A stretch of 59,575 nt of DNA from an uncultured Planctomycetia bacterium (GTDB taxonomy: Bacteria; Omnitrophota; Gorgyraeia; VGKN01): contig CAZDNS010000006.1 of NCBI GenBank assembly GCA_964506845.1, forward strand, positions 1 to 59,575. Reading direction: 5' to 3'. The notes under the pieces are model-generated. The model saw nothing but the letters and a program-made list of their open reading frames with translations, made no database searches and was not told the origin of the DNA. The position numbers and the translations under genes are program-made. Within the stretch, counting starts at the first letter, position 1. Every line of letters starts with the position of its first letter. Below, one piece after another: positions 15,378 to 49,186 of this stretch.

Positions 15378-15381
15378 AAAC

Positions 15382-15456
15382 GGGTCAACCTGTGCCTCTT
15401 TGGGTGCTTGTCTAAAAAGAGGGCTTTGCGCCTTTCTTAAAGGGTCAACCTGTGCC
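15382..15456 (-). repeat. 15-nt direct repeat flanking the read-through spacer
   Basis: gggtcaacctgtgcc occurs at 15382-15396 and 15442-15456, exactly 60 nt apart. It encodes AQVDP twice in the read-through frame. Confidence 0.8.
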
Positions 15457-15458
15457 TA
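15456..15458 (-). other. Single in-frame TAG separating the 466-aa and 911-aa ORFs
   Basis: 15378-15455 is 78 nt (26 codons) with no further stop. It translates as AQVDPLRKAQSPLFRQAPKEAQVDPF, directly in frame with MDEVEARV... Confidence 0.9.
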
Positions 15459-17397: not shown

Positions 17398-17799
17398 CTA
17401 AAACGGCATATCTACTTCAGTATGAAGCGCCTTGATTTTCGCAAGTTTTTCCCTCTCTACCTTTGCAATAAAATTATAGATTCGGCTTCTGGAGGGATTA
17501 TCTATATCCAGAAACTGGATGCCGCTTTCTATCTTATCTCGCTCATTTTGAACAGAGCCTCTCTCTATAAACGGCCTCTGCCACACATCCTTGCCTTTAA
17601 CCCTTAAGGGTAAAAATCTGCTATCAAAATTAAGTTCTATGTCTAAGGTATCGCCTGTGTTAATACCCTTATCGGATATAATCCTAATGCCTCCTGAGCT
17701 CATATCCACGCACTTTACAATAAATGCGGCCCCATTCTCATCCTGGCATCTAATATTGAACGAGTATCTGAAACGCCTGTATTTTCTATGTTCTCTCAT
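17398..17799 (-). CDS. PilZ-domain protein, paralog 1
   Basis: ORF track gives 17398..17817. The internal ATG 17799 gives MREHRKYRRFRY..., the same length (133 aa) as paralog 2. It carries the RxxxR ('RKYRR') and D-x-S-x-x-G ('DMSSGG') PilZ signatures. Confidence 0.8.
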   Translation of the reverse strand: MREHRKYRRFRYSFNIRCQDENGAAFIVKCVDMSSGGIRIISDKGINTGDTLDIELNFDSRFLPLRVKGKDVWQRPFIERGSVQNERDKIESGIQFLDIDNPSRSRIYNFIAKVEREKLAKIKALHTEVDMPF

Positions 17800-17810
17800 A
17801 ATTCTATCTC

Positions 17811-17838
17811 TTGACAATGTTCATTTTTATGCTATACT
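17811..17838 (+). promoter_or_regulatory. Sigma70-type promoter of the AbrB/RelE-like cassette
   Basis: TTGACA (17811-17816), 16-nt spacer, TATACT (17833-17838). AGGGGG Shine-Dalgarno precedes ATG 17896. Confidence 0.6.
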
Positions 17839-17850
17839 TAATTTTGGAAA

Positions 17851-17865
17851 ATAAGAAATTCTTAT
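17851..17865. promoter_or_regulatory. Perfect 7+1+7 palindrome between promoter and antitoxin start (candidate operator)
   Basis: ataagaa-a-ttcttat. Confidence 0.45.
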
Positions 17866-17895
17866 ATTCTGACATTTCGTAAAGGGGGTATAAAA

Positions 17896-27500: not shown

Positions 27501-30500
27501 CCGGCTGACCAATCCTTTAAGTAACGGCTGTTTTGATAAAATGTTTAAAATATCCTCTGGGTTCTTTCTAGAAAGCTCAGCCAATCTGGTAATAAACACC
27601 TGCACAGCTGTGGCATTTAGCAGAATTTCTGTCAACTGGGAAGAGGGGAGCCCTGTTGTTTGCACAATTCTTGCAAACTCTTCGCTTACGGTTTGCAGTA
27701 AGGATTCAGAAGGCTTTGATACCGGAGCAGGATGGCCACTCCCAGAAGAAGTGCGGCTTGCAGCCATATCATTCAGTGTGCTAACATAATGTAAACTATG
27801 AAAGGCTTCGCTTACTCGTGGCTCGGCATTCTCTATCAATCTGGATAGCCGAGCGGAAATATCCTTAAACCTATCTTCTTTGTTTAAGGCACTTTCATCG
27901 GTGCTCAGACGGCCTAAAATGCGCACCTGCCCTTTTTCCATCTGATATGCTAAATCACCTGCCTCGACTAAAGATATAGCCTCTCCTGAAGCGGCAGGCC
28001 AATTGAGGAAAAAGTTAATGCCATCAATACTTCCTAAAGAGATATAGAAGCGCCTGTTGCGATAATCCTTATCTACAGCATAATATATCTTGCCTATGGA
28101 AACTTGGGTTTTAATCTCGTGTCTATCAATATTCTCTCTCTCATAGTGACGGAGATTATATAAAGGTAGCAGTATCTCATCCAGCGCCTCCTTATGCCTT
28201 AATAATATCTCTGCCATCTTTCGCTTTCCTTCAGCACTTAAGTCCCATACATTAGATATACTCCCCCTAAAATCATCTTGCAAAATCAAACCTTTAAGTC
28301 TTCTTAAAAGCTCCTCAGGGTTTGGTGGTTCTTTACTCTTTAAAAGATATACAAGCGGCGCCATTGCATCAGGGACAAGGTAAAAATCCTCGCCTGCCTT
28401 TCCCTGGTCAAAGCATAATGCCACAAAAATATCTCTTAACTTATCCAAAATCTGAGCTGCAATTTCAAAGTTACCTTTTTCTATTAAGCCCGTTTCTACA
28501 GCGCGCCCTGCCTGACGCAGCTCTTCCTGCATCATAAATCTGATAATTGCCTTCTTTTTATCCTCCGCATATTTATTCCAGTTCTTTTCCAAAAATGCAA
28601 AATAGGGCTGTCTTGCTAATTCTGGATGAGCCTTAAGCGCCGCTTCTAATTCTTCGCTGCGATTTTTCTTTAGCCAGGCGTAGAAGAGAAGGTCTTCATC
28701 CAAAGCAACCGATTCGGTGAGGTTAGCCTCGTGGTTTAAAAGCAATGTCTGCAGTATTGCGGGCAACATCGTCCATTCATCGTCTATCTCTAAGAACCCA
28801 TCCCCGGGATTTGAGATATAAAATTCATTGTCAGGGTCAACGAAAAATCTTGTTTTAAAAGAATATGAGCTACCAGGAAATCTACGAGCTGCATAAGAAG
28901 AATTTACCCCATGGGAGTTTAAGTAAGCCTGCCAGGTAGCAAGGGCTCCAGAAAGATTAGCATTTATTCGCCTGAGTTCTTCAGCGGTATACAAAGGCCG
29001 TGGTTCTTTGGCAAATTTATGACTAACCTTAACCAAACCTTCAACTACTAATTCTAACTGACCCTCGGCCTTATAGCTCTTATATACACCCTTTTCTTTA
29101 ACAACTGTTTTTCTTAAAGGCGCTCTATGAGCAACTGTAAGAGGGATAGTAGACGCATACACATATGCCTCGCGGGCTAAGCTCGGAGGTATGACTATTA
29201 AACAATTTTTATAACTACCTTCTTCTACAACCTCTTTAAGTAAGTCTCTTAAATAAACTAAATCTGATATCAAGACAATATTTTTTTCTCTTAGCCCAAC
29301 TACTTTCAATCCCGCCTCTTCTGCCCTTATAACCCTTGGGTCATCCTCAGTAACTTCGTCCGCAACTATTACATGCTTTACACCTGCCAACCTTAGAGCC
29401 TCTGCGGTAATATCAGAGGTATGGGCACCTGGTTTAAATGGAGAAAGCCATTTTATATCCACGGCCAATTCCATTCCATTAGGCAGTGTGGCTTGGTTTA
29501 AATCAAACAGGTCTGCTGGGCTTTCACCCCTTAGGGCGCGGTCAAAAAGCGATATATCTGTATCCGATACAGCAAAAAAGATACGGATATCATTTTCAAG
29601 GTCAATATCAGAAAGGTTTGCTTCAATAAATTTAAAAATATCCATTAGCTCTCTTAAATATGCGGCTTCCATTTTAGCGCCGCCAACCTCAGCCTTGAGA
29701 TTAAAACCCAAAGTCGGAATGCGGCCTGAAAAGGTTCCTGATTTTTTCTGCGCTCGCACTGTCTCAACTATAGCCCTTATCAGGCTAAGAGCGGCCTCTT
29801 TTGTAAGGGATGCTCCGCCAATAAGGCCGCCGTCAATATCAACCTCAACCATAAGGCCAGCGGCATTCTTTGCATTCATACTGCCGCCATACTGAATGAC
29901 CACTTTATCTGCATCGCCACCAACTAACTCCCTAAGTATTCCCTTGATAAACCCTTGCACCTCTTCTGCTTCTTGTGGCGTAGCGGGCCGTATGGCTTTT
30001 TCGCCAATAGCCCAAATCGGCTCATAGGCTATAATAGTGTTAAGAATCTGCTCTCTTGTACGACCGGCTAAACCATTAACTACCTGACTACGAATAAAGT
30101 TCCATCCTTCCTCTTTAAGTTTCCCTTCATTTGCATCGTCCTTTGGATAGCGCATCTCTGCTGGTTCGCCTACTGCCAACACATTAATACCACCCATTAT
30201 CCCATCAGCTTGCTTTAAAAGCGCATTGACATCTTCATCAGTCAATTCATGAGCAACTCTTGATTCAGAGTGGCCGCTTAGGATACCATCCGCGCCTAAG
30301 GATTTAAGAAGTTTTATGTTCGTTTTTTCGTTTGCCTGAGCCATAAGCCGCATAGGTCGGTAAAAATAACGAACTTCGCCATCCACGATTTCCTTTTTGA
30401 CTATCCATTTAGAGCGTGCCAATGCCTCCAATACCTCTTCTGCAGAATAACTCCCTGCTACTCCACTCTCCTCTAACTCTTTTACACTTAAAGACTTTCT

Positions 30501-33500
30501 TTGCTTTAAAATCTCAAAGACTCTATCTTCTGCAATTTTTAACAAAATATTGTTAATCCCTAAAATTAATTCAGTTAAATTTTTTGTTGAAAATGCTTCA
30601 AAAACTGAGGGGTGTTGGAAGGCGGGTAGATTTGCAATCTCATTAAGTTGTGCTTGTCGAGCCTCGAGTAAAATAAAGAATTTCTCGGTGGGGCGGTATT
30701 CTAAGCGTTGGCCTTTGTCTGTTTTGACCTTTTCTTTGGTGAAGAATCCTAAACTTGCAAGACCATCTAATTCCCATGTGAGGGTGGTGCGGGAGAAGGG
30801 CTTAGCTTCTCTTCTTGGCGCGCCGCGAGTCCTATGCAACTTTCTCCACCTCTTCTTTTTCCCATCCGTTTCAACATAACCATCAGTAGTAATAATAGAG
30901 TTCGCGTTAATAAGCCCCTTTCTCCCAGCCGAATACAAATCCAAAATTGCCTCTGCCAAAGAACCTTGAGTAGGTGTAGTCGGCACTGTCATTGCGTAGG
31001 ATTCTGTGGTTGTGTTTTGTGAGGTAATCTTAACATACTGCGCTGCCTCGCCATTTATAAGCGCCCTTGCAGCAAGTCCTGTCCTATCCCATTTATTCTC
31101 TCTATCCATACCCCAATAGCGGCCCATAGCATCAACTATTCTTCCAACGCCTAACTCATCGCACTTAGTTTGCAGTTCATCAAGATATTTCTTAGCGCTA
31201 TCAGGCGAAGTATCTCTGCCGTCTAAGAAGGCGTGTATAACAACCTGTTCACTCTTAAGACCTAAGCGTTTTGCCAATTCAAGAGTAGCAAACCAATGCT
31301 CCATTGAGGAATGAACATTTCCGTCGGACAAAAGCCCTAAAAGATGAAGGGTTGTACCTTTTTGTTTAACTTGTTGCATGGCCTGTACAAGAGTTTCATT
31401 TTGAAAAAACGAGCTATCTTGAATACTTTCATTAATTAGTTCACGGGCTGTCATTAACCTCCTGCCAGCACCTATTTCTCTATGACCATTTTCTGAACTT
31501 GGAATCTCTGAAGCCTTAAGCGAGGTATGCGGATATTGCTTCCAAAAAGTATCCATATTTGGTGTATTTGCCTGCGCAATGGCATTTCCCTCTGTCTCTT
31601 TCCTTATACCCCATCCATCAAGAACAATGGTTAATATCTTATTATGGGTCGTGTTAAGTGGGCTGGTAATTAGACTCTCTTGATCCATTTCCTGCGGCTT
31701 TTCAATTCTGCGCAGATGTAACAATGTAGGTGCAACATTTGTTAAGTTACCGCCTTCTCTAAGACTAACCTGTCCATCTAAACCAATAATGATAAAGGGA
31801 ACCGGATTTGAGGTATGAGAAGTAAGCAGTTTACCTGATTTATCAACCATCTGCTCTGCGTTACCGTGGTCGGCAGTAATAACAACAATATAACCTTGCC
31901 TCTTTGCCTCTTCTATAAGCCTTCCGAGTTGTTCATCAACTACCTCTATTCCTTTTTTGGCTGCCTCAAAATCACCCGTATGACCAAGCATATCCGCATT
32001 TGCAAAATTAAGAACAATGTCTTCAATGCCTGATCTCATATCGCTAATTACTGCATTCGCTAATTCGACTGCTTTCATCTCAGGCGCTGAATTATAAGTT
32101 GCCACTTGTTGGGAAGGAATAAGCCCCCATTCTTCTCCTTCTGATTTCTCCTGTTTTTCTCCATCTAAGAAATAGGTTACATGCTTAATCTTTGCATCCT
32201 CAGCCCTTCTCATCTGGCGGATACCATGCGCAGCAAGCACCTCGCCATAGGTATTTGTTAACGGTGGTGTCTTTAAAACTACTGGAACTGTAAAAGCACC
32301 GTCATATTGAGTCATTGTTACAAATTCTACTTGAGGTACTTTGCCACGCTCAACATCTCCAGCGCGGTCTTCATAATTCTGCCCTGTAAACCACCATATT
32401 AACTGACGTGGCCTATCTGTGCGGAAGTTTACGAAAAATAGAGTATCTCCATCTTTGACTCTACCTATCGGATTCCCGTCTTCGTCAACTACTACAATAG
32501 GCAGAACAAATTCATCTCCTTTAGCCTTTCCTTTAAAATGGTCTTCTACAAGTTTATATGCACTGGCCAAAACATCACTGATTCTCTTAACTAACTTAAC
32601 CTTCTTAGTCTGTTCTTCAATCTCTATCATTCTCAGATACTTAACCCTGCGGACTAATGGCTGTCCTTGGTACTGTCCACCTTCAGCAAAATCATATGGT
32701 GGCTGCGGGTCGCCTGTCTTCAATCCAAAGGCATTTGTGGCATACGCCAAGTCTGCAATACCATTATCCATGGTTTCGCCAGAGCGATGCGATATTATCC
32801 ATCCCATACCTGCACGTTTTGCAGCCTTTATAGCCTCTAATGTTCCATACATTGTTCCATTCTGATTTACCTTTATTAAAATATCCGTGGCTGCCTCCAT
32901 CTCTATCCCTTTATTTAAGCGTTGTAGCTGTGTCACAAATAAATCATCCCCGACTGTTCTAATGCCACGTTTTGTTCTAACGCCACGTCTCATCATTTCC
33001 TTTGTCAATTTCTGCCAGCCTTCCCAGTCATTCTCTGCTAAACCGTCTTCAATGGATATAATTTTTCCAGCATATTGCTCAGCCAATTGAACATAGTAAT
33101 CTATCATCTTGTCTGAAGTCCAAGCTTTGCCTTGAAAATTATATACTCCTCTGTCTTTATCATAGAAGGAGCTTGCTGCTACATCCAAAGCCAATTTCAC
33201 ATCCTCGCCAACTCTATAACCTGCTTTTTCTATGGCTTCAAATACATATCCGATTGCTTCTGTACTATTGCCTAATCCTTTAACTGAGAATCCTGCCTCA
33301 TCTGCACGCTTTATTGTTTTTGCATCAAATCTTCCCAATAATATCTCCTTTAAGGCACTGTCTATCATGTCGCCCATTTCTAATTGTTCACGATAACTCT
33401 TAGCGCCAACTGGAACTATCATTATCTCCTGAATATCTATGCGGTCTTTGCCTAATACTTCGCCTTCTGCTTTCTTTAAGGCGTGAAGGCCCCCATTATA

Positions 33501-36500
33501 GATATTCATATAGAAATACACTGGTTCTGTTTTATCGCTAACTGCATCGGGCTCGTATTTACGAATATATTCCCATAACTCCATTCCTTGTAACTTTGCT
33601 GCCATTTTCCACAATGCCCAAGAGACAGGAACAACAGCATTAGCGCCCAAAACTGCAAAATTCTCTCCTGCTTTCTCTATTATCAATTGTTCCATTTTTA
33701 TTAAGTCTTCATACTTTCTTAAATCTAACCCGCTTTGCATTAGCAATTGAGTAATTATCTCATTAACATTCCTGATAGCCTGTTCTGTGGTTACAGTCTT
33801 TGCCTCATCTTCACCTTTAGATGCACCTGCAGGCACAGTGCCAGTCACTTCAATATCGCCTAATCTCAGCACCGCTTCTACTGTTGATTTACCGCGAGAA
33901 TCAAAAGCCTCTCTTGCCACTAAGTTAAGTTGAATTGGCGCATTACGATTGATTAAGAACTGTATTTCTGGATACTCACCGGCTATTCCTTTAGCAGAAT
34001 CAACTTGTAATGTTCTCCAATTCAGTTGGCGAGGATGTTCAAAATTTTTGGGCTCATCATCTATTAATATTAATTCTTCGGCTGAGGTTATTCCAAATTC
34101 TCTTTTAAGTATTTTAAATGCTTCGTCAAATGCCTTTGACTCCGGTTTTAGTTCACCCAATTCTGCTGAGGTGATAATACGAACATTTTGTAAAAATGGA
34201 AATTTTTTCTTTAGATATTCCGCTCTCTCTTTTTCCATATTAGTAAGGATTGCTAAATTATAACCGCGCTCTGAAATGGCTTTAACTAACTCGGCAACTC
34301 CCGGGATTTCCTTGTATGCGTCATATAAATATAACTTAAGTGTTTCTTTACGCTTATCTTTGCCTAATTCAAAAAACTCTATTGCCTTCTTAGTTTTAGG
34401 TTTTCCTATGGTTTCTCTTAAAAGCTTATTTAACACATAAGACCAGTATTCATCTGCGGAAATCTTACCCAGCCTGAAGTCTTTTGCCTCATTGCTTGTT
34501 TGAAGCCACACGCGCAATGTATCTTCATCAACGCCAAATATCTTATTCATCTTATCTATACAATCATTAAGCCCGTCTGTCAGCAACGTCCCGGTTAAAT
34601 CAAAAAGGACGGTATTGACTTTGGATAACTCAGTTGTCAGCTCTTCTGTTGCCTCCCTTATAAGCTCTTGATAGAGCGGCTGTAACTCATCAGGAAGTTG
34701 GAAGCCTTTTGCTTCTATCTCTTTCAGGAATAAAACCCACCGAAGCGCCTCGCTTGCCCCATATCTATGGTGATAACTAAACATATCAACGATGACTTCT
34801 GGAGCAATGTTTAACCCTTTAAGAAATAGCTTCACCGCTTCAGGATTTGGAATCCGACCGATTGGAGTATCAATTGCTTCTACTTTCATACCTTCAAACT
34901 TACCCGCCATTGCTAGTGCAAGCATAATGAGCCGCACATCCTGACGAAAACCTGGCCAACCTTTTCGGAATTGGTCAAAATGGAAAAAGGCAGGAGCTTT
35001 GCCATTTTGTTTGGCTTGTTTCATAACATAAAGCCAAGTATCAAGATGCTGCCGTTCAGTAGTGGCATAGAATGGCCTTAATGCAAATGGATCTGGCCTT
35101 CGTCTTCCGACTACAGCGCCTTCAACGGCAAATGTTTCCTCTGGAGCCATAAAGAATGCATCTAATATTGCTCTCTCAGGAGTATTCAGTTGGACAAGCG
35201 GAGGTTGCCCGTCTGGAATTTTGCCGCCAAAGAAAATCGCATCAATCCGTCCGCCTTTATGCCAATTGGGTGAGCGGGTTTCAAGATTTACCTTGTTCAA
35301 TGTGAAACGGGCATTTGGATGAGCCCATTTTTCACCCCGTTTGCCTTGTGGGCGTTCTGCAATAGGTTGACCTGTCCAATCCTGCCATCCCTCCAGGCTC
35401 TTTGGAGGAGTGTCTGTTTCACCTTTTACCCAGCGCTCATATTGCTCTAACTCACTCACGTCAATTGGCACAGTATCAGTTAATTCCTCCCACCATACTT
35501 TACCTGTCTTTCGGTTAATGGCAGTGTTAGTAAAGATTACGGGTTTATTTCCAGGTTTAACTTTTGGGCTGAGTGTAGCCTCAACAAGCCTTGCGTTCGT
35601 TCTGGGGCTTGTTTTTGGTGCCACAGCAAAAAGCCCGTCCTCGGGATTTGCACCCACAAGATAACCCTCCTCATCAAACCACATACCTACTAGGTCATCG
35701 CTGATTGTAAGAACCTCCCAATCATCCGCTAATTCATCAGGAGGAAGATAGGTTGCAAACGTGCTTTTACCTGAGGCGCTTGGACCGAATAACATAATAC
35801 GGTATGTTTTGCTGGTTTTCTTATTTATTAATTCAATTAAAGCCGCATGCTCTGCCAGCACAAGCGTATTCGGAGGTATTGACTCTCCTTTATCGCGAGC
35901 TCGTTTTACATTTTGATACGCTATATACTGGGCTAAACGAAGCCCAAATTTCTTTGGACCTAAGAGATTGCCGCCATAGGCTGACCCAAAAAGGCCAACC
36001 TCTCTCTCTTTTGGAAATTCAACAAACAATCTGTCCTCTGGTTCATCAGGCTTAGTGGCTCGTCTAATTTTATCCAAATCTCCTGTGGAGTGCCAAATTT
36101 TTAAAACCTCATCCGGATTAGCCGAATTAAGCTTCTGTAATGCACTATCGCCAATAACCGCCTGTCCGACTTTAACCAGTTCCAATAAACTTATCGCCCC
36201 ATAGATACTGTCTGTAACCTGCACACCCACCATCTCAATCGGAGAACCTGGGAACATAATAAATGGTATTACATACATCTTCTTTCCTTTATAGCTTCCA
36301 TACGCCCTATCTTTAAGCTGTTTTTTTGCTTCATCTGCATGCATCCAGTTATTAAAAATTCCCTTATCAGCTGGGTCGTCAGTCGCAATATGGGTCGGAG
36401 CTTCGGCGCGGGCAGTATCCTTTGGATGAGACCTATGATGGTAATTACCATCGGGAAGCGCGGTTAAAACTCCTTCCTTAACAGCAAGGTCAAAAAGACG

Positions 36501-38625: not shown

Positions 38626-41600
38626 TTATATCGCCAGCTTCATATTCATTTTCTTCATAGCGGTTTTGGTTATGGCTACAGGTTTTTTCAAAATTCGCAT
38701 CATTTGTTCTTCGCTAAACAATGGAATCTTTTTCCCATCATAAAGCTCAACCATATTCAGCAAATCCACCATCAGATGGTCCTGACCCAACTGCTCATCA
38801 TCTATCCTGCAGAAGGATATTATTTTTTTCTTGGCATATTCCATAAGATAATCATAGATTCTTATGTAGTTACCTATGGAGCTTATGCTGAAACCTATCT
38901 GGTCTTTCCCTTCGCCAAGTTCAAACCCCGCCTGTTCTAAAAACTCAATGGCAGATTTCAGTATCTTTGGATTGTGCGCCATATTTAACTGAATTGCCAC
39001 TTTATCTCTTCCATGTTCGTTGATTGACTTTTTCGTTGCCCTTAGAAACATTATGAACACTTCGTTATATCCGGGCGACATATTCTTAATAAGCCCTCTA
39101 AAACCTAATGGCGAATTTGTGGTTGACCTTTCATATCTATCGCCAAATTTAAGACCTTTAAGCAATACTTGACCACCTACAGTGCTACCTTTGAAAAAAT
39201 CTGGCTCCTGCTGCGAGGTCTCAAAAACCACTAATTCCCCCTTTTCTGTTGCTTCTCTTACTGCCGCATCAATGTGTTCTTTGACCACTTTATTAATAAA
39301 ATCTTGAATGGAGCTCGCCTCATATCTCCCTAATAACTCTTCCACAGCTCTAACGGTATCTCTCTCTACGGCTTCGTCAATTACTATCCCCTTTTCTTTC
39401 TGAAAAGCCCTCAAGTCATTATAGGCCTCTTCGAATGTCTCTTTTGCAAGTCCTGATAATTGTCCAGTTTTGTAGAGATAAATAGCAAAAGCAAAAGGAT
39501 GTAAACCTAATTCGACAAATATATCATCCATGCTTACTACTTTAACATTTACCTTCTCAGGCTCTGCAGTATAATCTATATTTTCAGGAGTAAATATAGT
39601 GTTGTCTACAATCTTCTCGGTATAGAGTTTTATGCTCTTTTCTAAATACACAAAACCTCTCTGAAAATCAACCACATAGTCTCTATTATCTTCTAAAGCC
39701 CTGAAAGGATCCTGAGCAGTATCAACAAGAATAGCGGGTTTTCGCCAGTTTACTCTTAACCACTCCATGACAGGAGAATCCTCTCTAACACCACTTGTTA
39801 TAATCCCGCTTGCCTTTGAAAGCTGTATAGCAAGAATGCTTTCTTTTTTAGCATCTGTCTCTGTAAAATCCACATCTGGACCCAAGATAACGATATCCCC
39901 CTCAACAATCTTTGGCACTTCAACTTTTTTACCATCCGGCAATTTTTCTAAATATGTTAAATCTCTATTGTTTTTTATAAAAACTACTCTGCGTAATGCA
40001 GCGCCCTTTTGCTCCTCTCTAAGTTTTTTGCCTGTTACTATCTTAGTTAGTGGTCCGACATCCTTTGAATCTATATAATTTGTTTCTAAGTGGCTATCTG
40101 CTGTGAGGCTGACAGTCTGACCAAATGCAGGGATACTAGTTCCAACAGAATCCAATACTGCGACTATCTGCATAGCGGCTCTTCTGGCTTCAGGGGTGGG
40201 TTTTCTTAGCAAGTTTATTATGGCATTACCGCATAAACCCAGTGTAAAATCCACCAATGCCTCTCCTGTCTTTGGGTCTGTAAATTCCTCTTCAATAACT
40301 CTCTTTGCCTCAAGCGCGCTATGTAATATAGCGTCTATAACCTCTGGGTCTCCTTCGTCAAAGACTGATATCTCGCTGACCTTATCTGTTCCTGGAATAT
40401 ATATTTTTGTCTTTTTGAATCCCTTCTCATCCCTGTCTGCCTTTTTAACGGACTGGGTAAGGTCATTTGTCCCATATGAAAAGAAGGTATGGACATTGTA
40501 TTTCCTGGCAAAATTAGCCAGAATTCTTGCGTAATCAGCTGCCAGAGGAACGTTATTTCCAAGCTCAAGCATCATACCTATATATGGAGGAAGCTCTATC
40601 TCACCTGCTTCATAAAGTTTTGCTATCCTATCTAAACCCTTCTCTAAATCCTCGGGCGACCTTAAGAACACAAAGAAGAATCCAAACGTTCCCACATTTG
40701 TCCCCTTTGTGGCTTTTATGGCATCGTTCATAGCCTTAAGTTGAATATCCACGGCATAGATATTCTCATCCCTGACCTCAAGGCCTGTGCCTCTGTCACC
40801 CACCATAGAAGCCCTCTCCTCATTGTAAAATAACTCGGCACCAATCAAATCTTTTATAATCTCGTTCTTTTTAAAATCCCTTGCCCTGACTAAAACCAAT
40901 TGTTCTGGTGTAACTGTTCTTGCCAAGCCAATAAAATGTGCCTTTAGTTTATCTCTCAGATATGCCTCTGCTGTGGGATAGCCTGCTATCTTTTCTCTGA
41001 TTTTAGCCTGTATATCCTTTCGCGGTCTTAACTTCTCTACATCCGCCATCATTCTCTTTTGCCTTGCTATTTCTGCTGGTCCTTGGGGATTTTCTAATAG
41101 GTAGAGTTGCTTTTTATTGGCTCTTAAAATAGCCAATTCCCAGAGTTGTTCTCTTATCCTGTTATTCTTATGTAATTTTATACCCCGTAAAAGCCCCATA
41201 GTGTACTCAACTGGTCCAACAACCTCTCCTCCTTCGGAAACGGCAAAGTTCCTTATTGTCTCTTCATTATCCAACAGGTCTTCCACATTGGCTATTATCC
41301 ATTCTCGCCTTTCCTCTCTCGGCACCTCAAGCCATTCGCCGTTAATCTCTATCTTAGAAGGCCCGAGCTCAGTCTTATCCAAGATTATATTAAGTGCACC
41401 TTCAAGTTCCTCTTTTGCTGTAATCAACTCCGCTTCTAAACCTTCTAACTCTTTTAAACGTGCCAAAATCTTCTCCTTATTATTGAGAATCTGTAGATTG
41501 TCATAGGCCTCGCCTGCCCTGAAATCCACTCCGATAGCTAAAAGTGCCTCTTCTATTCTATCGAGACTGAATCCATAATAACCGCTTAGTTTTTTCTTTA

Positions 41601-44600
41601 ACTCTTTAATAAATTTGGGCGCCCAGAGACTAAGCTTTGAGACTCGTTCTGCATCGAGAACAGATGCCAGTATAAGACCTACCTTTGTCTTAAAATGCTG
41701 CCATCTGGTTGGCGAGTAAAATATAATCTCTTCAATAATAGGATATTTACCCAAGTATATTCTTCCCTGATTTGCATCTACAGTGAGTTCTATCTCTGAT
41801 TTTTTAACCTTGTTTAAAATATCCTTATCCTCAGAAAGCAATGCAGGATTTATTACTAACCCCACAACTGCAGGAATTCCCCTTTCTCCGCAAAAGATTG
41901 TGGCATGGGAGGTTTCAGAGCCAGTTAGGGTAACCACGTAACTTGCCACCATCATCGCTCTGTCATATTCAGGTTTTGGGTCAGCTGCCAGCATACCCAC
42001 AGTCTCTCCCGCATTCTTTAATAAATCTACCACCTCTATAAACCTGTCTATCTGTCGCGATAAAATTTCAGACACAAAAACATTAACTTCGCTTGTAAAA
42101 AGGTGATTTGAAATATCTATATTCGTCCTTATGTCAATAAAAATAGTAAGTAAAAGGGATTGCCTGTCTTGGGATACCTGTCTCTTGGCCTCAGGGCTTA
42201 GCTCACCTTCAACTGGTAAACTTAGCTCGGTTAATAAGTTTTTAAGGCCTCGTTTAAATCCTTCTTTATTTTGGACTTTATCTGGTAAGGTTAATTCTTC
42301 TATAGCCCTATCTATCTGTGATGCAGAAACCCCTACTAAATCCTCTCTTCCTATAAATGACAAAATCTTCTCAAAATCCTCTTTATTTATATCTCCTAAG
42401 TCTGCAAAATCCTTTTCTAACTCAATCTCTTTAATCCTCTTTGCCCTTTTATAACGCCAGATTATGTCTTTTAGTTCCTCATCTGTAAACCATTCTTTAT
42501 CCAGAGCCTTCTTAACATTTTCGAAATCCTTAAAAGGCTCAGAATATCTTCCAGGTAAGAGTGCTTTTAAAATCGCAATTCCCTCTTGAAGCTTTCTTCC
42601 AACGCTTTGAGTTAATGCTTCGGCTACATCCCTTTTGCTTTTTTCATCAATGTAAATTGCCCTACCTGCTCCTGCATTTGAGGTAGCCACACCTTCTCCG
42701 AATTTCTTGGCATGCTCTATCTGCTCTGGGTCCGGAATTGTTCTTTTAAGCCTTAGATTTTTCGGGTCATCCTTATCCAAATCCGGAATAGCAACTGCTC
42801 GCATCTGGACAGTATTAAAACGCAGTCTTCCTTTATACTCGTAATATAAACATTCGGTATCAACGGTCTTTCCAAGCGCCCCTTGTATCTCTACAATCCA
42901 TCTGGCTATTTCAATGGCTTTCTGTTCTATATCCGATTCATATAAACTCTCGGTTATGCAAAAGCGTTCCCTCATTTCTTGAGGAACTTCTATTCCCTCA
43001 GGATGTTCTTTTGTCATCATACGCTCTTTTTTGCCACGGTGTTTAAAATTAACTACCGCCTTTCCTGTTTTAAGGTCGATATAAACCTCAAGCCTGTCAG
43101 GTTCAACCTTTCCTTCAACCAAGAATGGACCAAGTCCGTATGTAGCATCAAAGGTTATAGTCAAGGTGTTATTGCTAAAACCTGTCATCTTACTTGCCTT
43201 TTTCACAGTAAAACCTGTGATACAGAATTTACTCTGTCTCATAGCCTGTACGCCAAGACCCATCCCAACATTAAGCGGATCTACAATTCTGCTTCTGATA
43301 TCAGTCAATGATTTTCTTAGACGTGAAACTTCCACAGGTGCTTCCTGTTCAATTAAAGAGAGTATCTTTAGCAATCTATAAGTGGAGACAAACTGCTCCT
43401 TTCTTTCGCCCTGGTCCTTAATTGCCTTATTTAACCTTAAAATGACATCTCTGGTAGACGCAGTTTTTCCTTCCTTAATCTCAATCCAAGTTATGTTAGA
43501 ATTTGCCTCGTCTGACTCAAAAGCATTTATAACCAAGTCTCTATCTAATGTTTCAACAAACCTTCTCTTCAAATCTATTTCGCTAATCCCATCCGTCTCT
43601 TTCTGCTGAGTCTTCCAAATCTCAAATGTAGTATTATGCTTAGCTTCTACCTTATTAACCAAATCAGCTATATTTTCTCTTACCCATCTATCGTAAGCAG
43701 AGTTATATCTCTTTTCTAATATAGTTATAACCGTTTGTAAATCCCGCTTGTCTATACTCTGGGTAAGCCACTCATCAAACACCAAAAGGTCTCTATATAC
43801 AATTGGCATTGACTTCCATAATGAAGCGAATCCCTTTAAAACATTAGCAAAAAGCGCTTCAAATGTGACATTTAAATATGTATCCTGCAAGCCTGCAGCT
43901 GCGCCAATTGGACGGTCTTCATAATAAGAGGAACTTCTTACAGCCATAAGTAAGCCAATGAGATTAGTTACTTCTTCTTCATTTAAAATCTTGCCTTCTT
44001 TAGCTCCTTCGAAGAAATCCTTGACTTTTATTTCTTCCTGAGAATTCTTAAGTTCCATAAGTTTTTCTATCTTATCTTTTGTTATAATTCCTTCCTGAAC
44101 AGCAAGCAGTAAAAACTCGGCAAATAATTCATCTGCAAGCGATTCTGGAACTGTGGCACTTTGATGCCAACCGCTTATCAATCCTTCGGCAATGCTTGGC
44201 TCATAGGCATCCTGCGCATCAAGGTCTATAATAACCTCTCTGATTTTTTTCAACATACTTTCGTTCTCTACTGTATTAAGCCGCAAAAAGAAATTATGCC
44301 CTGCGCCAGTAATGCCGAATACGCTCGGAACAGGCGGTTTATCCAAACCCATCCTTAAAAGACGCTTGGCAACAATCTCAGTAAGGAAATACCGCACCAT
44401 CTTAAAAAGGTTATGCACCTTACCGCCAACTGTATCAAGCGTGCTTAACTCCTCAGGCACATCCGCTCTTTGAACAAGATAACCTGCCTTTGTCTTCTCA
44501 ATAGCCTCGGCTAATGCTTTGCAGTCAACTATGCGGTGGGCTAAAGGTGTATTTTTTAGGTCGGGTTGGGATAATATATATCTCTCTAAAGCTTGCTGCT

Positions 44601-45027
44601 TATCATCTGCAAGCTCTCCTACTGCCTTCATAATTACATATATCCGCCTGAAATCCCTGTTGATAGAACCAATAAGAACGGCTAATACATTATTTAAGTC
44701 CGTTTCCTTACCAGTTTTTAAAAGCTCTATAGCATCTTCAAGTTGTGCCTTAGCATGAGAGAAATCTCCTTTGTCTAAATACGCATCCATCTGCTGCCAG
44801 GTGATTGAACCTCCGATAGCGGGACCTGGCGCAGTGCTTAAAGTTTTTCTTGCGCCATTTCTTCTGCCCGCGCCCTGCTCACCTAACATAATAGGAGGTG
44901 CGAGCTTGTCTTTCTTTAAGGCAGTATTAGCATAGGCAGTATCAAAATAAGTGGGCGAGATTACTAAATTAAAAGAAACTAGAATTGTGATTACGGCTGA
45001 AAAAAATCTTTTATATCCTTTAAACAT
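38626..45027 (-). CDS. Leader-bearing PEP synthase / pyruvate-phosphate-dikinase-family megaprotein (2133 aa) with large insertions and a second, degenerate swivel + TIM-barrel unit; no CTD
   Basis: ORF track, with GAAGGGA 6 nt upstream of the ATG. Leader is MFKGYKRFFSAVITILVSFNLVISPTYFDTAYANTALKKDKLAPPIMLGEQGAGRRNG. Confidence 0.9.
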   Translation of the reverse strand: MFKGYKRFFSAVITILVSFNLVISPTYFDTAYANTALKKDKLAPPIMLGEQGAGRRNGARKTLSTAPGPAIGGSITWQQMDAYLDKGDFSHAKAQLEDAIELLKTGKETDLNNVLAVLIGSINRDFRRIYVIMKAVGELADDKQQALERYILSQPDLKNTPLAHRIVDCKALAEAIEKTKAGYLVQRADVPEELSTLDTVGGKVHNLFKMVRYFLTEIVAKRLLRMGLDKPPVPSVFGITGAGHNFFLRLNTVENESMLKKIREVIIDLDAQDAYEPSIAEGLISGWHQSATVPESLADELFAEFLLLAVQEGIITKDKIEKLMELKNSQEEIKVKDFFEGAKEGKILNEEEVTNLIGLLMAVRSSSYYEDRPIGAAAGLQDTYLNVTFEALFANVLKGFASLWKSMPIVYRDLLVFDEWLTQSIDKRDLQTVITILEKRYNSAYDRWVRENIADLVNKVEAKHNTTFEIWKTQQKETDGISEIDLKRRFVETLDRDLVINAFESDEANSNITWIEIKEGKTASTRDVILRLNKAIKDQGERKEQFVSTYRLLKILSLIEQEAPVEVSRLRKSLTDIRSRIVDPLNVGMGLGVQAMRQSKFCITGFTVKKASKMTGFSNNTLTITFDATYGLGPFLVEGKVEPDRLEVYIDLKTGKAVVNFKHRGKKERMMTKEHPEGIEVPQEMRERFCITESLYESDIEQKAIEIARWIVEIQGALGKTVDTECLYYEYKGRLRFNTVQMRAVAIPDLDKDDPKNLRLKRTIPDPEQIEHAKKFGEGVATSNAGAGRAIYIDEKSKRDVAEALTQSVGRKLQEGIAILKALLPGRYSEPFKDFENVKKALDKEWFTDEELKDIIWRYKRAKRIKEIELEKDFADLGDINKEDFEKILSFIGREDLVGVSASQIDRAIEELTLPDKVQNKEGFKRGLKNLLTELSLPVEGELSPEAKRQVSQDRQSLLLTIFIDIRTNIDISNHLFTSEVNVFVSEILSRQIDRFIEVVDLLKNAGETVGMLAADPKPEYDRAMMVASYVVTLTGSETSHATIFCGERGIPAVVGLVINPALLSEDKDILNKVKKSEIELTVDANQGRIYLGKYPIIEEIIFYSPTRWQHFKTKVGLILASVLDAERVSKLSLWAPKFIKELKKKLSGYYGFSLDRIEEALLAIGVDFRAGEAYDNLQILNNKEKILARLKELEGLEAELITAKEELEGALNIILDKTELGPSKIEINGEWLEVPREERREWIIANVEDLLDNEETIRNFAVSEGGEVVGPVEYTMGLLRGIKLHKNNRIREQLWELAILRANKKQLYLLENPQGPAEIARQKRMMADVEKLRPRKDIQAKIREKIAGYPTAEAYLRDKLKAHFIGLARTVTPEQLVLVRARDFKKNEIIKDLIGAELFYNEERASMVGDRGTGLEVRDENIYAVDIQLKAMNDAIKATKGTNVGTFGFFFVFLRSPEDLEKGLDRIAKLYEAGEIELPPYIGMMLELGNNVPLAADYARILANFARKYNVHTFFSYGTNDLTQSVKKADRDEKGFKKTKIYIPGTDKVSEISVFDEGDPEVIDAILHSALEAKRVIEEEFTDPKTGEALVDFTLGLCGNAIINLLRKPTPEARRAAMQIVAVLDSVGTSIPAFGQTVSLTADSHLETNYIDSKDVGPLTKIVTGKKLREEQKGAALRRVVFIKNNRDLTYLEKLPDGKKVEVPKIVEGDIVILGPDVDFTETDAKKESILAIQLSKASGIITSGVREDSPVMEWLRVNWRKPAILVDTAQDPFRALEDNRDYVVDFQRGFVYLEKSIKLYTEKIVDNTIFTPENIDYTAEPEKVNVKVVSMDDIFVELGLHPFAFAIYLYKTGQLSGLAKETFEEAYNDLRAFQKEKGIVIDEAVERDTVRAVEELLGRYEASSIQDFINKVVKEHIDAAVREATEKGELVVFETSQQEPDFFKGSTVGGQVLLKGLKFGDRYERSTTNSPLGFRGLIKNMSPGYNEVFIMFLRATKKSINEHGRDKVAIQLNMAHNPKILKSAIEFLEQAGFELGEGKDQIGFSISSIGNYIRIYDYLMEYAKKKIISFCRIDDEQLGQDHLMVDLLNMVELYDGKKIPLFSEEQMMRILKKPVAITKTAMKKMNMKLAI
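38743..39960 (-). other. Second, degenerate PEP-utilising unit (His-less swivel-like segment + partial TIM barrel)
   Basis: 'KASGIITSGVREDSPVMEWL' has no His where TSH is expected. 'FVELGLHPFAF', 'NSPLGFRGLI', 'IGFSISSIGN' and 'SFCRIDDEQLGQ' stand against the canonical F-S-I-G-[ST]-N-D-L-T-Q. Confidence 0.5.
40108..41700 (-). other. PEP-utilising enzyme TIM-barrel domain (with insertions)
   Basis: 'YGFSLDRIEEALLAIGV', 'MVGDRGTGLE', 'YIGMMLELG', 'TFFSYGTNDLTQS', 'TLGLCGNAI'. Confidence 0.7.
41848..42015 (-). other. Phosphohistidine swivel domain
   Basis: 'VVTLTGSETSHATIFCGERGIPAVVG'. Confidence 0.8.
42643..44505 (-). other. PPDK_N / ATP-grasp nucleotide-binding region (with insertions)
   Basis: 'LDTVGGKVHNLFKM', 'LMAVRSSSYYEDRPIGAAAGLQDTYLNV'. 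Confidence 0.7.
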
Positions 45028-46125: not shown

Positions 46126-46723
46126 CTATTGTAATCTCTCTAATTCCCAATTCCTGAATTCCATATCCAACAACCCCGTGCGGTTAAATAGAAGCGTCCC
46201 CTTTTTCCTTGTTTTAAGTGCTTCTATTTCCTCTGCGCTTGCCATTCTAAGTTTGCCAGAACTAACTAAATTGGCTAAGCCCGACTGCTTTAAGAAACCC
46301 TCTGTTTTTCCTTGCTCTATTCCTCTTTCATCAATAGAAAATCTGATACCCTTGGTTTCTGATAACCAGTGAAAAACCTAACTCATCTAACTCTCTATTT
46401 TGCTCTTTTAAAAGAATAATACCCTGTCTAATTTGCTCTGCTATTTGCTGCAAATCTGTTGTTGTCCTAACCACTTTTTCCGCCAGTTCTATCATTACCG
46501 CAGCACCCAGCGCACGTCTGGCTGCATTTAATTTTCCATCAGCACCATTTCTACGGCTACTATGCGCAGAGGTCATAGGAGGCGCAAGGCGAGATTTTTT
46601 CTTCTGGTTTAAGGAATAGGCAAAGACGGGGTCTATAAGGGATGTGGCGATAAAAACCTCGGCAACAATTAGCGCTATTAGCTTTTTAAAATAATTTCCA
46701 ATGTTATTACTTTCGGGCAACAT
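46126..46723 (-). pseudogene. Cargo-less family member: leader fused almost directly to the CTD, frameshifted and 3'-truncated next to the HEPN gene
   Basis: Frame A (track ORF 46331..46723) gives a leader, MLPESNNIGNYFKKLIALIVAEVFIATSLIDPVFAYSLNQKKKSRLAPPMTSAHSSRRNG, then 'GIILLKEQNRELDELGFSL', which aligns with CTD 'NLIVLQPHMLAQALGLQL'. Frame B (46377-46129) gives 'HWLSETKGIRFSIDERGIEQGKTEGFLKQSGLANLVSSGKLRMASAEEIEALKTRKKGTLLFNRTGLLDMEF', which aligns with CTD 'SLLASDEGITVVVDKEGIQEGEIDSYLELAGLKDLVSSGKVQLKTKRGIEEL..YLDGW'. The last ~75 CTD residues are missing. Confidence 0.65.
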
Positions 46724-46999: not shown

Positions 47000-47401
47000 T
47001 TAAAACGGCATATCGATTTCGGCATGAAGCTCTCTCATTTTTTCCAGTTTTTCTCTCTCGACATTTGTAATAAAGTTATAGATTCTGCTTCTGGAATGAT
47101 TATCTATGTCCAGAAACTGGATGCCGCTTTCTATCTTATCTTGTCCATTTTGAATAGAACCTCTGTCTATAAACGGCCTCTGCCACACATCCTTGCCTTT
47201 AACCTTCAGGGGTAAAAATCTGCTATCAAAATTAAGTTCTATGTCTAAGGTATCGCCTGTGTTAATATTCTTATCGGATATAATCCTAACGCCTCCGGAG
47301 CTCATATCCACACACCTTGCAGTAAATATGGTTTTATCCCCGTTTTGACATTTAATATCAAAAGAGTATCTGAAGCGTCTGTATTTTCTATGTTCTCTCA
47401 T
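47000..47401 (-). CDS. PilZ-domain protein, paralog 2
   Basis: 133 aa, with 106 of 133 residues identical to paralog 1 by manual alignment. It has the 'RKYRR' and 'DMSSGG' motifs. Confidence 0.8.
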   Translation of the reverse strand: MREHRKYRRFRYSFDIKCQNGDKTIFTARCVDMSSGGVRIISDKNINTGDTLDIELNFDSRFLPLKVKGKDVWQRPFIDRGSIQNGQDKIESGIQFLDIDNHSRSRIYNFITNVEREKLEKMRELHAEIDMPF

Positions 47402-47587: not shown

Positions 47588-49186
47588 TTATTTTATCTCT
47601 GTTTCGTCTTCCTCCTCAAGGAGTTTTTCAACAGGTATTTCCTGATTGGTCATAACAGAGTAATACAAATCCTCGTCTATATTGGTGACATTGGGAGAGA
47701 TTACTATATAGGATATGCCTTTTTCTTTTAATTGCTGGGTAAAACCCTTGGTGTGGTATCCTCCGGCAATCAGGGCAGAGAGATTAGCTTTATTAAAATC
47801 CATCTTGTCAAGTGCATTTCTAATCAATGCCTCGTCCCTTACTGTGGCTATCTCGTAAAATTCCTCCTCATCCTGCAGGCTTGAATCTATCGAGGATATG
47901 CTAGGGTCAAGAGAATAGCGTACATTGTATTTCGGCGCTGTCTCTTTTAAAAAATCGCTAAATGCTGTTGATTTAAACTCTTCTTTATGGTTATTATAAT
48001 ATTCCATTTCCTCGTTAGACATACTCATATCAAAAAATTTCTTAAGGAGTGCTACATTCTTTGAGAACCTTGCAAGGCGTTTTTGCTCTGGAGTTGTCAG
48101 GTAACTTTCTCTTATTGCATCTGCTACCCCGTCTAACTCAGTAAAAAGCAAAACCTTATTTATCCTCTCGGAATAATTGACATACTCAATATAATTCTTT
48201 AGATTCGGATAACCACCCAAATCCACATTATTCTCTTCGGCAGTCTCTTTCATAGTTGTAAAATACTCAAGTGCCGTTATCTCCCCTGATTTATAGGAAA
48301 GGCTTTTCTGGAAAAAGGTGCTGAATGCCTCTTTGGGAAGCGCCCTGCTTAAATCATCTATTGCTTGGCTGCGCTCTTTATCTACCTTGGCGAACTCAAT
48401 ATTTCCTTCAATGGATACTAATTTTGTAAGAAAATAAAAGTTCTCAAACTTTGAAAGGTCTATGTTTCTCGCCTCGGTCTTTTCCTTCATGTAATCCACG
48501 TAATCGGTTACCTCGAGCTCTTTGTTTTCATATGCGTCATATTTCTCATCCAATTCCATTATCTCTTCGGGATATATCGCCTTCTTTACCTTGGAAAGCG
48601 CTCCTTTAATATTATCGCAGAGTCTTTTAAGCTCCTTTGACTTTGGATAGGTTTTATTGAACACCTCTACATGCTTTAGATATGGTCCTTCATCCTCAAC
48701 GCCCCATAACTCTAAAGGATATTCTCCTTCGTTGTTTATCAAAAGGTATTCTGCGCCGGTAAGTTGTCCCTGTTTTAAGAAAAATCTGGTAATTTTTCTC
48801 TGCATCTTTTTATCCTTAAAGGTGAAAAGGGTGGGATCCACTGCTCCTGCAGCTCCCTCGCAATTTACCAGGCGAAGCCCATAGTTTTTCATAAGGTGCT
48901 TAAGTATCCTTACTATATTCATCTGGCAATCGTAATTACAATGAAGATCCTGGAGATGAACAATAACCCTATCGGATGACCCCTTGTAGGATTCTACCAC
49001 CTTTCCAAAACCCTCAGGAATTTTTAAATCAGAAACATCTGTTTTATCTTCTGAATTTAAGGCAGGAACGCTATCTGATAGAGCAGCTGAAAGGATATGG
49101 CTTTGAGATATAACTACGAAAAAAAGGACTATGATACCTATAAGAAAAGAAAAGACAACTCTTTTTTTAGTTGACCTGTCTGCCAT
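47588..49186 (-). CDS. Hypothetical membrane-anchored protein (532 aa)
   Basis: ORF track. It has an N-terminal hydrophobic segment, 'VVFSFLIGIIVLFFVVISQS'. 'RVIVHLQDLHCNY' near the N-terminus and 'ALIAGGYHTKGF' near the C-terminus faintly recall the GxxH motifs of the Tiki/TraB/GumN/ChaN superfamily. That link is low-confidence inference. Confidence 0.7.
   Translation of the reverse strand: MADRSTKKRVVFSFLIGIIVLFFVVISQSHILSAALSDSVPALNSEDKTDVSDLKIPEGFGKVVESYKGSSDRVIVHLQDLHCNYDCQMNIVRILKHLMKNYGLRLVNCEGAAGAVDPTLFTFKDKKMQRKITRFFLKQGQLTGAEYLLINNEGEYPLELWGVEDEGPYLKHVEVFNKTYPKSKELKRLCDNIKGALSKVKKAIYPEEIMELDEKYDAYENKELEVTDYVDYMKEKTEARNIDLSKFENFYFLTKLVSIEGNIEFAKVDKERSQAIDDLSRALPKEAFSTFFQKSLSYKSGEITALEYFTTMKETAEENNVDLGGYPNLKNYIEYVNYSERINKVLLFTELDGVADAIRESYLTTPEQKRLARFSKNVALLKKFFDMSMSNEEMEYYNNHKEEFKSTAFSDFLKETAPKYNVRYSLDPSISSIDSSLQDEEEFYEIATVRDEALIRNALDKMDFNKANLSALIAGGYHTKGFTQQLKEKGISYIVISPNVTNIDEDLYYSVMTNQEIPVEKLLEEEDETEIK

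Follow-up and report, generated by a model that had tools for sequence, protein, structure and literature searches.

A clade-specific leader and post-leader motif on giant central-carbon enzyme genes of an uncultured Omnitrophota bacterium

Introduction

Why would enzymes that need ATP, NAD(P)H, FAD or iron-sulphur (Fe-S) clusters begin with a leader that looks like an export signal? The question is raised by a stretch of 59,575 nucleotides (nt) from an uncultured bacterium that GTDB places in the Omnitrophota (contig CAZDNS010000006.1 of assembly GCA_964506845.1, positions 1 to 59,575; hereafter the window), in which six minus-strand open reading frames (ORFs A to F, Table 1) open with a related hydrophobic leader followed by a K-L-A-P-P motif. 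From sequence analysis we tentatively read this element as a Sec/SRP (signal recognition particle)-type signal peptide combined with a lineage-specific motif in the early mature region, carried on giant multi-enzyme genes.

Leader architecture and translation signals

All six leaders were found on the minus strand at the starts that the original prediction had given (Table 1), and the segment that it had singled out, 44848-45027, is exactly codons 1-60 of E. The E leader reads MFKGYKR / FFSAVITILVSFNLVI / SPTYFDTAYA, followed by NTALKKD-KLAPPIML-GEQGAGRRNG. The n-regions are basic and of an aromatic-K-K type (KKV, RRFNK, YKKFW, RKYFKK, YKRFF and YFKK; four with K-K, one with K-R and that of B with R-R), and their net charge ranges from +1 to +6. 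The h-region spans 16-17 residues, with a mean hydropathy over 12 residues of 2.5-2.85, against 0.8-2.0 by the same measure in the window's cytosolic housekeeping proteins. At a fixed register it contains a polar mid-core residue (E in A, B and F; Q in D; N in C and E). An invariant Pro follows the core, and 5-9 residues further on an A/S/L-x-A/G/S box was identified by inspection in 10/10 copies. These -3/-1 boxes (AYA, ANA, AYS, AYS, SFA, LFA, AYG, ADA, AYG and AYA) are all small and aliphatic and fall in one fixed alignment column. A Gly/Asn/Arg-rich stretch trails the motif. Two sub-types can be distinguished, KK-hhALIhhE/Q-xF in A, B, D and F, and YK[KR]F...VSFNLV-SPT in C and E.

The n/h/c layout, the conserved A-x-[AGS] box and the missing lipobox bear out the earlier description of these leaders as Sec-like. 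In each protein the N-terminal leader is the single convincing hydrophobic segment, and in five of the six leaders a charge count places the more positive flank on the N-side, which points to N-in insertion.

Other known signals were considered and rejected. The Tat consensus S/T-R-R-x-F-L-K is absent, as originally predicted, although the claim that no twin-arginine precedes the core fails for B, which carries an R-R pair (RRFNK) outside the consensus context. A lipoprotein signal for signal peptidase II is ruled out by the lack of any Cys in the first 60 residues of all six leaders. A type IV prepilin signal is likewise ruled out: there is no G-F junction, and the acidic residue lies 8 residues past the basic pair; NCBIfam returned no prepilin-type or other signal-domain model at the N-termini. 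Inspection and this empty NCBIfam result also dispose of KxYKxGKxW/YSIRK and sortase/exosortase-like readings.

Shine-Dalgarno-like purine tracts lie 5-9 nt upstream of the start in five of the six genes, D being the one without. About 25 nt of the 5' untranslated region (UTR), including the ribosome-binding site, can be aligned between C and E, which indicates that the cassette was copied together with its translation signals. The first ~15 codons of D align with the untranslated 5' UTR and Shine-Dalgarno tract of E, and a former 5' UTR may, to judge from this alignment, have given rise to the n-region of D. As a separate observation, the 13-mer TGTGACTTAAAAC, with a TGTGA core, occurs on the minus strand at 16908-16920, 52 nt upstream of the C start, and at 38381-38393, where it directly abuts the ATG of D; with up to two mismatches it has 8 matches in the window against 1.7 expected.

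A conserved motif past the leader

The motif has the consensus [KRHQ]-L-[AV]-P-[PQ]-Φ-x-Φ and begins 6-11 residues past the A/S/L-x-A/G/S box. Each protein has the pattern L-[AV]-P-[PQR]-[LIMFV] a single time, at residues 37-49, and the other 13,811 residues, where shuffled sequences give an expectation of 0.3, have none; nor does any frame of the window hold another copy. This lack of internal copies rules out a polyprotein in which the motif would recur as an internal site of cleavage or a linker. K-L-A-P-P had been called invariant. That holds for L and the first P, the only invariant residues; the second Pro is replaced by Q in B and in the borderline database match P0009 described below, and by R in P0002.

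Within the ten known copies the codons for L, A/V and P vary synonymously, and synonymous sites are saturated across the copies while these residues are retained, so selection acts on the peptide and not on the DNA or RNA. L and P form the most conserved columns of the whole leader, above the h-region. Between C of the window and its orthologue in another Omnitrophota metagenome-assembled genome (MAG), DeMMO3_15 (locus L004), the signal-peptide part has fallen to ~50% identity and the motif region is identical. By these sequence comparisons the motif is under purifying selection within its clade.

Passenger enzymes

Pfam assignments agree with the earlier claim that cofactor-dependent enzymes follow the leaders, among them PRODH/PutA, a GltD-like Fe-S flavoprotein and NAD(P)- and nucleotide-dependent enzymes. 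A carries a GltD-like module of Fer4_20 and Pyr_redox_2 (FAD/NAD(P)). B consists of a GDH-like domain, PutA_N, Pro_dh and Aldedh, that is, a full PutA (PRODH plus ALDH). C is a duplicated class V fructose-1,6-bisphosphate (FBP) aldolase/phosphatase (FBPase_3 twice). D joins GDH, PEPCK(GTP), HAD, enolase, iPGM, TIM, Zn-ADH-like and PGM/PMM domains. E holds PPDK_N, the PEP-utilizers mobile domain with its catalytic ETSHA and PEP-utilizers_C, and is of the PPDK or PEP-synthase type. From these domain assignments the row reads as a gluconeogenic set that would lead from proline through glutamate to 2-oxoglutarate and from pyruvate/oxaloacetate through phosphoenolpyruvate and 2-phosphoglycerate to 3-phosphoglycerate. 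Its later steps would run from triose phosphate through FBP to fructose 6-phosphate and a hexose-phosphate mutase, with ATP/GTP, NAD(P)H, FAD and Fe-S clusters required.

The catalytic motifs are intact. The seven canonical GltD Fe-S cysteines are kept in A (C534, C537, C542, C709, C748, C754 and C758), with a 166-residue insertion between the third and the fourth relative to a canonical GltD at another Omnitrophota locus, L009. The enolase of D has SHRSGET and, aligned with Bacillus subtilis enolase, every catalytic residue. Other signatures are those of TIM (GHSESR and YEPIWAIG), ALDH (GGQKCSA, with the catalytic Cys, and EMGGK) and GDH (KGGIR). Cysteine is otherwise depleted, at 0.18-0.33% in the giants against 0.4-1.9% in their cytosolic neighbours. 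There is none in the enolase domain of D, nor in the corresponding domains or fragments of two other Omnitrophota proteins, the leader-bearing P0089 and P0127, the sequence of which does not reach the N-terminus; the 103 leaderless relatives have a median of 2 in their enolase, with none in 11 of them.

One ORF looked as if it lacked a leader, the 911-amino-acid (aa) ORF at 15377-12642. It is in fact the continuation of the leader-bearing C behind an in-frame TAG (15456-15458, minus strand) that splits the gene into ORFs of 466 and 911 aa; the DeMMO3_15 orthologue has CAG at that position and an uninterrupted ORF of 1,398 aa. The TAG could be a nonsense mutation, a sequencing error or a read-through codon. 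With the continuation (B2) assigned to C, no giant enzyme gene in the row is without the leader.

B, C/B2 and D also share a C-terminal domain of ~200 residues that ends in ...Y[KR]A[QM]LGAK-stop. This LGAK domain was found only in the window and at L004 and L013, the clade with the K-L-A-P-P leader. Its AlphaFold model (predicted local distance difference test score, pLDDT, 68) has a Rossmann-like alpha/beta fold; neither Foldseek against the Protein Data Bank (PDB) at E <= 0.001 nor the sequence search returned a match.

On the side of ancestry, the enolase domain of D (32598-33923) belongs to a divergent enolase clade with only ~45% identity to the canonical B. subtilis enzyme. Its nearest relatives among P0013-P0126 are stand-alone, leaderless proteins of ~437 aa from Myxococcota/Deltaproteobacteria MAGs (57-64% identity).

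Distribution among the Omnitrophota

An exhaustive search of 1.84 billion cluster representatives with a hidden Markov model of the leader gave nine matches. Four were discounted: P0006-P0008 as repeat or low-complexity noise and P0009, a 667-aa protein with EQLAPQLL, as borderline. The others were the window's own proteins, a 60-aa fragment (KSKLVPRF) and an orthologue of C from Lake Tanganyika that keeps KLAPP. A word-indexed homologue search with the leader alignment recovered only F and the 60-aa fragment; such a search has little reach here, C as query giving three proteins. A metagenome scan with the C/E-type sub-alignment found a single JGI contig (L013).

A scan of genome collections placed relatives of C at seven loci, 7/7 in Omnitrophota MAGs. 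The closest relative (L004, MAG DeMMO3_15, 88% identity) retains the motif, as does L013/P0004. At the six other loci the FBP aldolase/phosphatase orthologues share 67-72% identity in the enzyme part; these have other signal-peptide-like N-termini and 6/6 lack the motif. As far as these searches reach, the leader cassette is restricted to one clade, comprising the window, DeMMO3_15 and the Lake Tanganyika contig. Recognition of the motif by a dedicated factor, as originally proposed, is thus not established: the motif is absent from orthologues at six of the seven Omnitrophota MAG loci, the finding that the proposal itself had named as telling against it. The idea is not dead, given the selection within the clade and two observations in another lineage described below, a second post-leader motif and a recurrent neighbour.

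Judged by their N-terminal sequences at nine loci, signal-peptide-like N-termini on glycolytic/gluconeogenic enzymes recur in several Omnitrophota MAGs. At locus L010 a canonical-looking signal peptide heads PGK, enolase and FBPase alike, and the N-terminus of iPGM is cut by the contig end. The PGK leader is MKRSILKVVGLVVGVMLVVFSVANA followed by TL; the FBPase and enolase leaders have hydrophobic cores of 13-15 residues. GltB/GltD and CTP synthase at L009 have no signal-peptide-like N-terminus. In another lineage (L015) an enolase fusion with a D-type leader accompanies a second leader-bearing gene, and past the A-Y box both leaders carry a different post-leader motif, NLR[TV]SA[IT]K.

Two further features of these loci were noted. 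L010 (20-7252) holds consecutive genes for iPGM, PGK (1,056 aa), enolase and FBP aldolase/phosphatase. An uncharacterised domain of ~370 residues (...FWVNL[RK]P...LLEADLQLKKD...YAALRQVF.SLILARWFK...) follows the signal peptide of the FBPase fusions at L005-L007 and L009 (residues ~30-400). The same domain forms a separate 407-aa gene at L014 (1262-2485), between an enolase fusion and a PilZ gene. That gene has no precomputed Pfam family, and for the FBPase fusion of L007 Pfam gave only TIM and FBPase_3.

A membrane-anchored neighbour

The 532-aa protein encoded at the high-coordinate side of F carries one anchor helix, strong and N-in in orientation, and a large domain that is predicted to be external. 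At L015 the ORF directly upstream of the leader-bearing enolase fusion resembles its C-terminus (43% identity over 86 residues, E = 8e-16). The protein contains D79-x-H81, E110 at a distance of 31 residues and GGYH477, and GG[YF]HT is kept in the L015 homologue. The TIKI/erythromycin-esterase superfamily is defined by a constellation of two His and two Glu residues on an alpha/beta TIKI fold (PMC6254334). The residue pattern of the 532-aa protein resembles this TIKI / TraB / ChaN / erythromycin-esterase constellation, a resemblance that is a lead and not an assignment to the superfamily. The protein had no match in Pfam (also at E <= 10), in NCBIfam or in sequence or profile searches of the PDB, and its single-sequence AlphaFold model was unusable (pLDDT 40.6). 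Its family is the only candidate reader of the motif that we saw, a candidacy that comes from two observations and not from a demonstrated association.

Interpretation of the leader

The sequences suggest the following course. A cassette of the leader with part of the 5' UTR and ribosome-binding site would have been placed before otherwise unrelated giant genes in one Omnitrophota clade. Early in translation the leader would direct the ribosome with its giant nascent chain to the cytoplasmic membrane, would insert N-in and would probably be cut at the A-x-A box. The K-L-A-P-P box, then near the new N-terminus, may be recognised on the outer side of that membrane so that the protein is retained, docked or trimmed, with the neighbouring 532-aa membrane-anchored family as candidate reader. 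A Sec-type, N-in and cleaved peptide is favoured because of the charge balance, the conserved box, the single hydrophobic segment and the short signal peptides of L010, and the cysteine depletion of the giants points the same way. Published DeepTMHMM/TMHMM predictions, which put comparable domains of Omnitrophota giants on the outside, also speak for it, as does the recurrence of the 532-aa family beside a leader-bearing gene at L015. We infer cleavage, the side of the membrane that would hold the enzymes and the reader of the motif from sequence features, and we hold this reading to be the likeliest of those considered, though slightly less likely than not.

Several points weigh against it. 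The passengers, whose catalytic and ligand residues are intact, depend on ATP/GTP, NAD(P)H, FAD and Fe-S clusters; Sec exports unfolded, cofactor-free chains, and such passengers should not function once exported. For a cleaved peptide the h-region is long, and the conserved mid-core Glu/Gln/Asn is unusual for Sec and would better suit a transmembrane helix that interacts with others. E (+2) and F (+4) have early mature regions of net positive charge, a feature that disfavours Sec translocation in Escherichia coli. No processing enzyme was identified, and the 532-aa protein matched no family in the Pfam, NCBIfam and PDB searches. Finally, most orthologues lack the motif, which leaves no general machinery that relies on it.

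In a rival that we regard as possible, though on the unlikely side, the leader is never cleaved. The helix would be a permanent anchor, perhaps oligomerising through its E/Q/N residue, with the enzymes on the cytoplasmic face and the motif, on the same side, as a spacer or contact next to the membrane. A coherent pathway that depends on ATP/GTP/NAD(P)H, with conserved catalytic residues and all seven Fe-S cysteines of A would be at home there, and PutA is normally a peripheral inner-membrane enzyme. The polar residue keeps its register within the helix, C-F carry K/R clusters past the helix, and the C-flank of F is more positive than its N-flank. West-Roberts et al. themselves, in the searched passages of their preprint, doubted the predicted localisation of related giants (10.1101/2023.11.21.568195). 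Such a tether is, however, hard to reconcile with the more positive N-side flank of five of the six leaders, which predicts N-in and C-out; insertion N-out would have to translocate a tail charged +2 to +6. Without cleavage the conservation of the A-x-[AGS] box goes unexplained, the depletion of cysteine also tells against a tether, and the 13-15-residue cores of the L010 FBPase and enolase orthologues are too short to span a membrane stably. At the opposite extreme, much of glycolysis/gluconeogenesis might be truly extracytoplasmic, in the periplasm, at the surface or at an interface with prey. PGK, enolase, iPGM, TIM, FBP aldolase/phosphatase, PEPCK, PPDK, GDH and PutA would be exported by Sec-type leaders, and a membrane-anchored factor of the 532-aa family, perhaps a protease like TIKI, would co-evolve with the lineage-specific K-L-A-P-P and N-L-R-x-S-A-x-K tags and read or trim them. 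The giant fusions would come together as a metabolon fed by metabolites and nucleotides of a lysed or tapped host. We consider this improbable.

The motif itself invites three further explanations. It might have no function and be kept only through copying of the cassette among the genes of one clade. The cassette does include the 5' UTR and Shine-Dalgarno tract, its distribution is narrow and most orthologues do without the motif, but L, A/V and P are retained against saturated synonymous sites, L and P outrank the h-region in conservation, and the motif region of C is identical between window and L004 while the signal-peptide part has diverged; we rate mere ballast as decidedly improbable. 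Less probable still is a dedicated export route, neither Sec nor Tat, that would recognise K-L-A-P-P and carry folded, cofactor-loaded passengers. It would account for a strictly N-proximal motif under purifying selection that is common to cofactor-dependent passengers, for a membrane protein family that recurs beside leader genes and for NLR[TV]SA[IT]K in the second lineage, the pattern expected from a co-evolving, lineage-specific reader. Yet the window holds no linked transporter genes, a folded D of 730 kDa exceeds known folded-protein export, orthologues at six of the seven loci manage with ordinary signal-peptide-like N-termini, and the 532-aa protein has one anchor helix and no transporter features. 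Least probable of all is a translational pause of the Pro-Pro/RAPP type ~35 codons past the start of the hydrophobic core, which would let SRP capture the nascent chain. The distance from h-region start to P-P is ~33-37 codons in all six leaders, and A-P-P is a slow tripeptide that depends on EF-P. RAPP-type arrest peptides are tied to Sec/YidC monitoring (PMC7897499, PMC10951233), which would suit such a role. RAPP arrest, however, requires its Arg, AAPP variants being read through (PMC12992588), and in the window this position is taken by the invariant Leu; the second Pro varies, Leu and the first Pro being the invariant residues, and RAPP motifs lie near the C-terminus of small proteins and not near the N-terminus of giants. 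RAPP/polyproline stalling was set aside for want of the essential Arg and of an invariant P-P.

Comparison with known systems

The leaders and their proteins can be set beside several known systems. With Sec peptides cut by signal peptidase I and with N-in anchors the leaders share the n/h/c layout, a basic n-region, a helix breaker before a small -3/-1 box, the position at the extreme N-terminus and soluble passengers. They differ from typical Sec peptides (h-region ~7-15 residues) in a core at the long end, in its central Glu/Gln/Asn and in an additional early-mature motif of unusually strong conservation; they also differ in their cargo, central-metabolism enzymes of a cytoplasmic type that require cofactors and reach 6,619 aa. 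Tat would be the expected route for Fe-S and flavin passengers, and the polar-weakened h-region with a basic pair directly before it recalls Tat signals; the window leaders nevertheless lack the consensus, and a 730-kDa passenger is far beyond known Tat cargo. RAPP arrest peptides (ApdA, ApdP, SecM-like) also have x-A-P-P downstream of an N-terminal membrane-targeting segment, but in the leaders studied here the essential Arg of R-[AG]-P-P gives way to an invariant Leu, P-P varies and the motif stands N-proximal in giants, whereas that of the arrest peptides is C-terminal in small regulatory ORFs upstream of localisation genes. Early-mature sorting has analogies in curli CsgA N22, the lipoprotein export signal of Bacteroidota and the trimming of the Wnt N-terminus by Tiki. 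As in these, a short conserved segment lies just past the predicted cleavage site, where it would be read after translocation; the window passengers show no sequence similarity to them, are not lipoproteins and have no cognate machinery identified here.

The closest published counterparts are the Omnitrophota giants ("Archaeovorins") of West-Roberts et al. 2023 (10.1101/2023.11.21.568195). The searched passages of that preprint describe TIM, GPI, FBPase, PGM/PMM and FBP aldolase in the predicted extracellular region, frequent PPDK-type domains and giant genes usually followed by pilZ homologues, and its authors caution that an overlooked transmembrane segment could make the localisation wrong. 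In the corresponding passages of a 2026 complete-genome preprint, DeepTMHMM was run on 916 long Omnitrophota proteins, and the metabolic content of a giant with signal peptide and transmembrane segments was placed on the periplasmic/extracellular face. As far as these passages go, Archaeovorins resemble the window proteins in phylum, in fused TIM/FBPase/PGM/PPDK-type domains, in a downstream pilZ and in an N-terminal signal peptide or transmembrane segment. They are at least 30 kaa (thousand aa) long with tens of transmembrane helices, whereas the window proteins measure 0.13-6.6 kaa with one hydrophobic segment. No HEAT, GT, TPR or peptidase domains were detected in the window proteins, which belong almost wholly to one coherent pathway. 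The window giants are at most smaller relatives of the Archaeovorins.

The export paradox is real but an already noted open problem of the phylum. New here are the clade-specific leader cassette under selection at the protein level, a different post-leader motif in another lineage, the leader-bearing stand-alone PGK and enolase of L010, the leader-bearing enolase fusion of L015 and the recurrent 532-aa neighbour; the searched passages of the 2023 and 2026 preprints mention neither the shared leader motif nor the LGAK domain. The window sharpens the topology question into a directly testable one within a recently recognised Omnitrophota phenomenon. Should the leaders export, an ultra-small bacterium that lives as an episymbiont or predator would have ATP-, NAD(P)H-, FAD- and Fe-S-dependent central-carbon enzymes at work beyond its cytoplasm, which would overturn the assumption on where glycolysis/gluconeogenesis can run and explain the purpose of the phylum's giant proteins. 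Should they tether on the cytoplasmic face, the row would encode a compact natural assembly line, membrane-scaffolded and covalently fused, and topology predictors would systematically mislocalise a class of Omnitrophota proteins, with consequences for published conclusions. Either way these are small single-helix cases with a defined leader and motif, far more tractable than the 40-147-kaa proteins studied so far.

Organisation of the locus

The genes form a single minus-strand row. Housekeeping genes (ribF, pnp, uppP, ftsK, rodZ, rimO, pgsA and pgpA) occupy the high-coordinate end and are followed by the 532-aa protein gene, a PilZ gene, F, a plus-strand MNT/HepT pair, the giants E and D, a second PilZ gene, a 23S-rRNA-IVP/bAvd-like gene, C with its continuation, B and A (Table 1).

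Table 1. Leader-bearing genes and associated features of the window.
Feature	Coordinates	Strand	Description
A	1..5301	-	GTG start 5301; >1,767 aa, runs off window; leader motif KLVPPLIL at 5170-5193
B	5495..12322	-	TTG start 12322; 2,275-aa fusion; leader motif KLAPQLLL at 12194-12217
C+B2	12642..16856	-	ATG start 16856; one FBP aldolase/phosphatase gene; leader motif KLAPPLTL at 16707-16730
D	18519..38378	-	ATG start 38378; 6,619-aa fusion; leader motif HLAPPLFL at 38214-38237
E	38626..45027	-	ATG start 45027; 2,133-aa PPDK-type protein
E leader, codons 1-60	44848..45027	-	K-L-A-P-P-I-M-L box at 44884-44907
F	46331..46723	-	ATG start 46723; 130-aa ORF; leader motif RLAPPMTS at 46568-46591
LGAK C-terminal domain	5495-6154, 12642-13301, 18519-19178	-	in B, C/B2 and D
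PilZ-domain gene	17398..17817	-	downstream of D (Pfam)
PilZ-domain gene	47000..47401	-	between 532-aa gene and F (Pfam)
532-aa protein gene	47588..49186	-	N-in membrane anchor and large predicted extracytoplasmic domain

F consists of a D-type leader and a short helical tail, and an identical copy is present on two Logan contigs; F could be either a remnant or a small leader protein that stands alone. Between F and E, at 45272-46095 on the plus strand, a toxin-antitoxin pair of an MNT nucleotidyltransferase (Polbeta) and a HepT ribonuclease is inserted. F might be what is left of a longer gene with a leader.

A 178-aa ORF between D and its PilZ gene (17862-18398, minus strand) is Cys/Ser-rich, of low complexity and without a family match, and may not be a real gene. 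Proteins of the bAvd type sometimes accompany diversity-generating retroelements, and no reverse transcriptase was seen in the window. The 23S-rRNA-intervening-sequence-protein/bAvd-like gene itself encodes a four-helix bundle and lies at 16930-17322 on the minus strand, between the PilZ gene and C.

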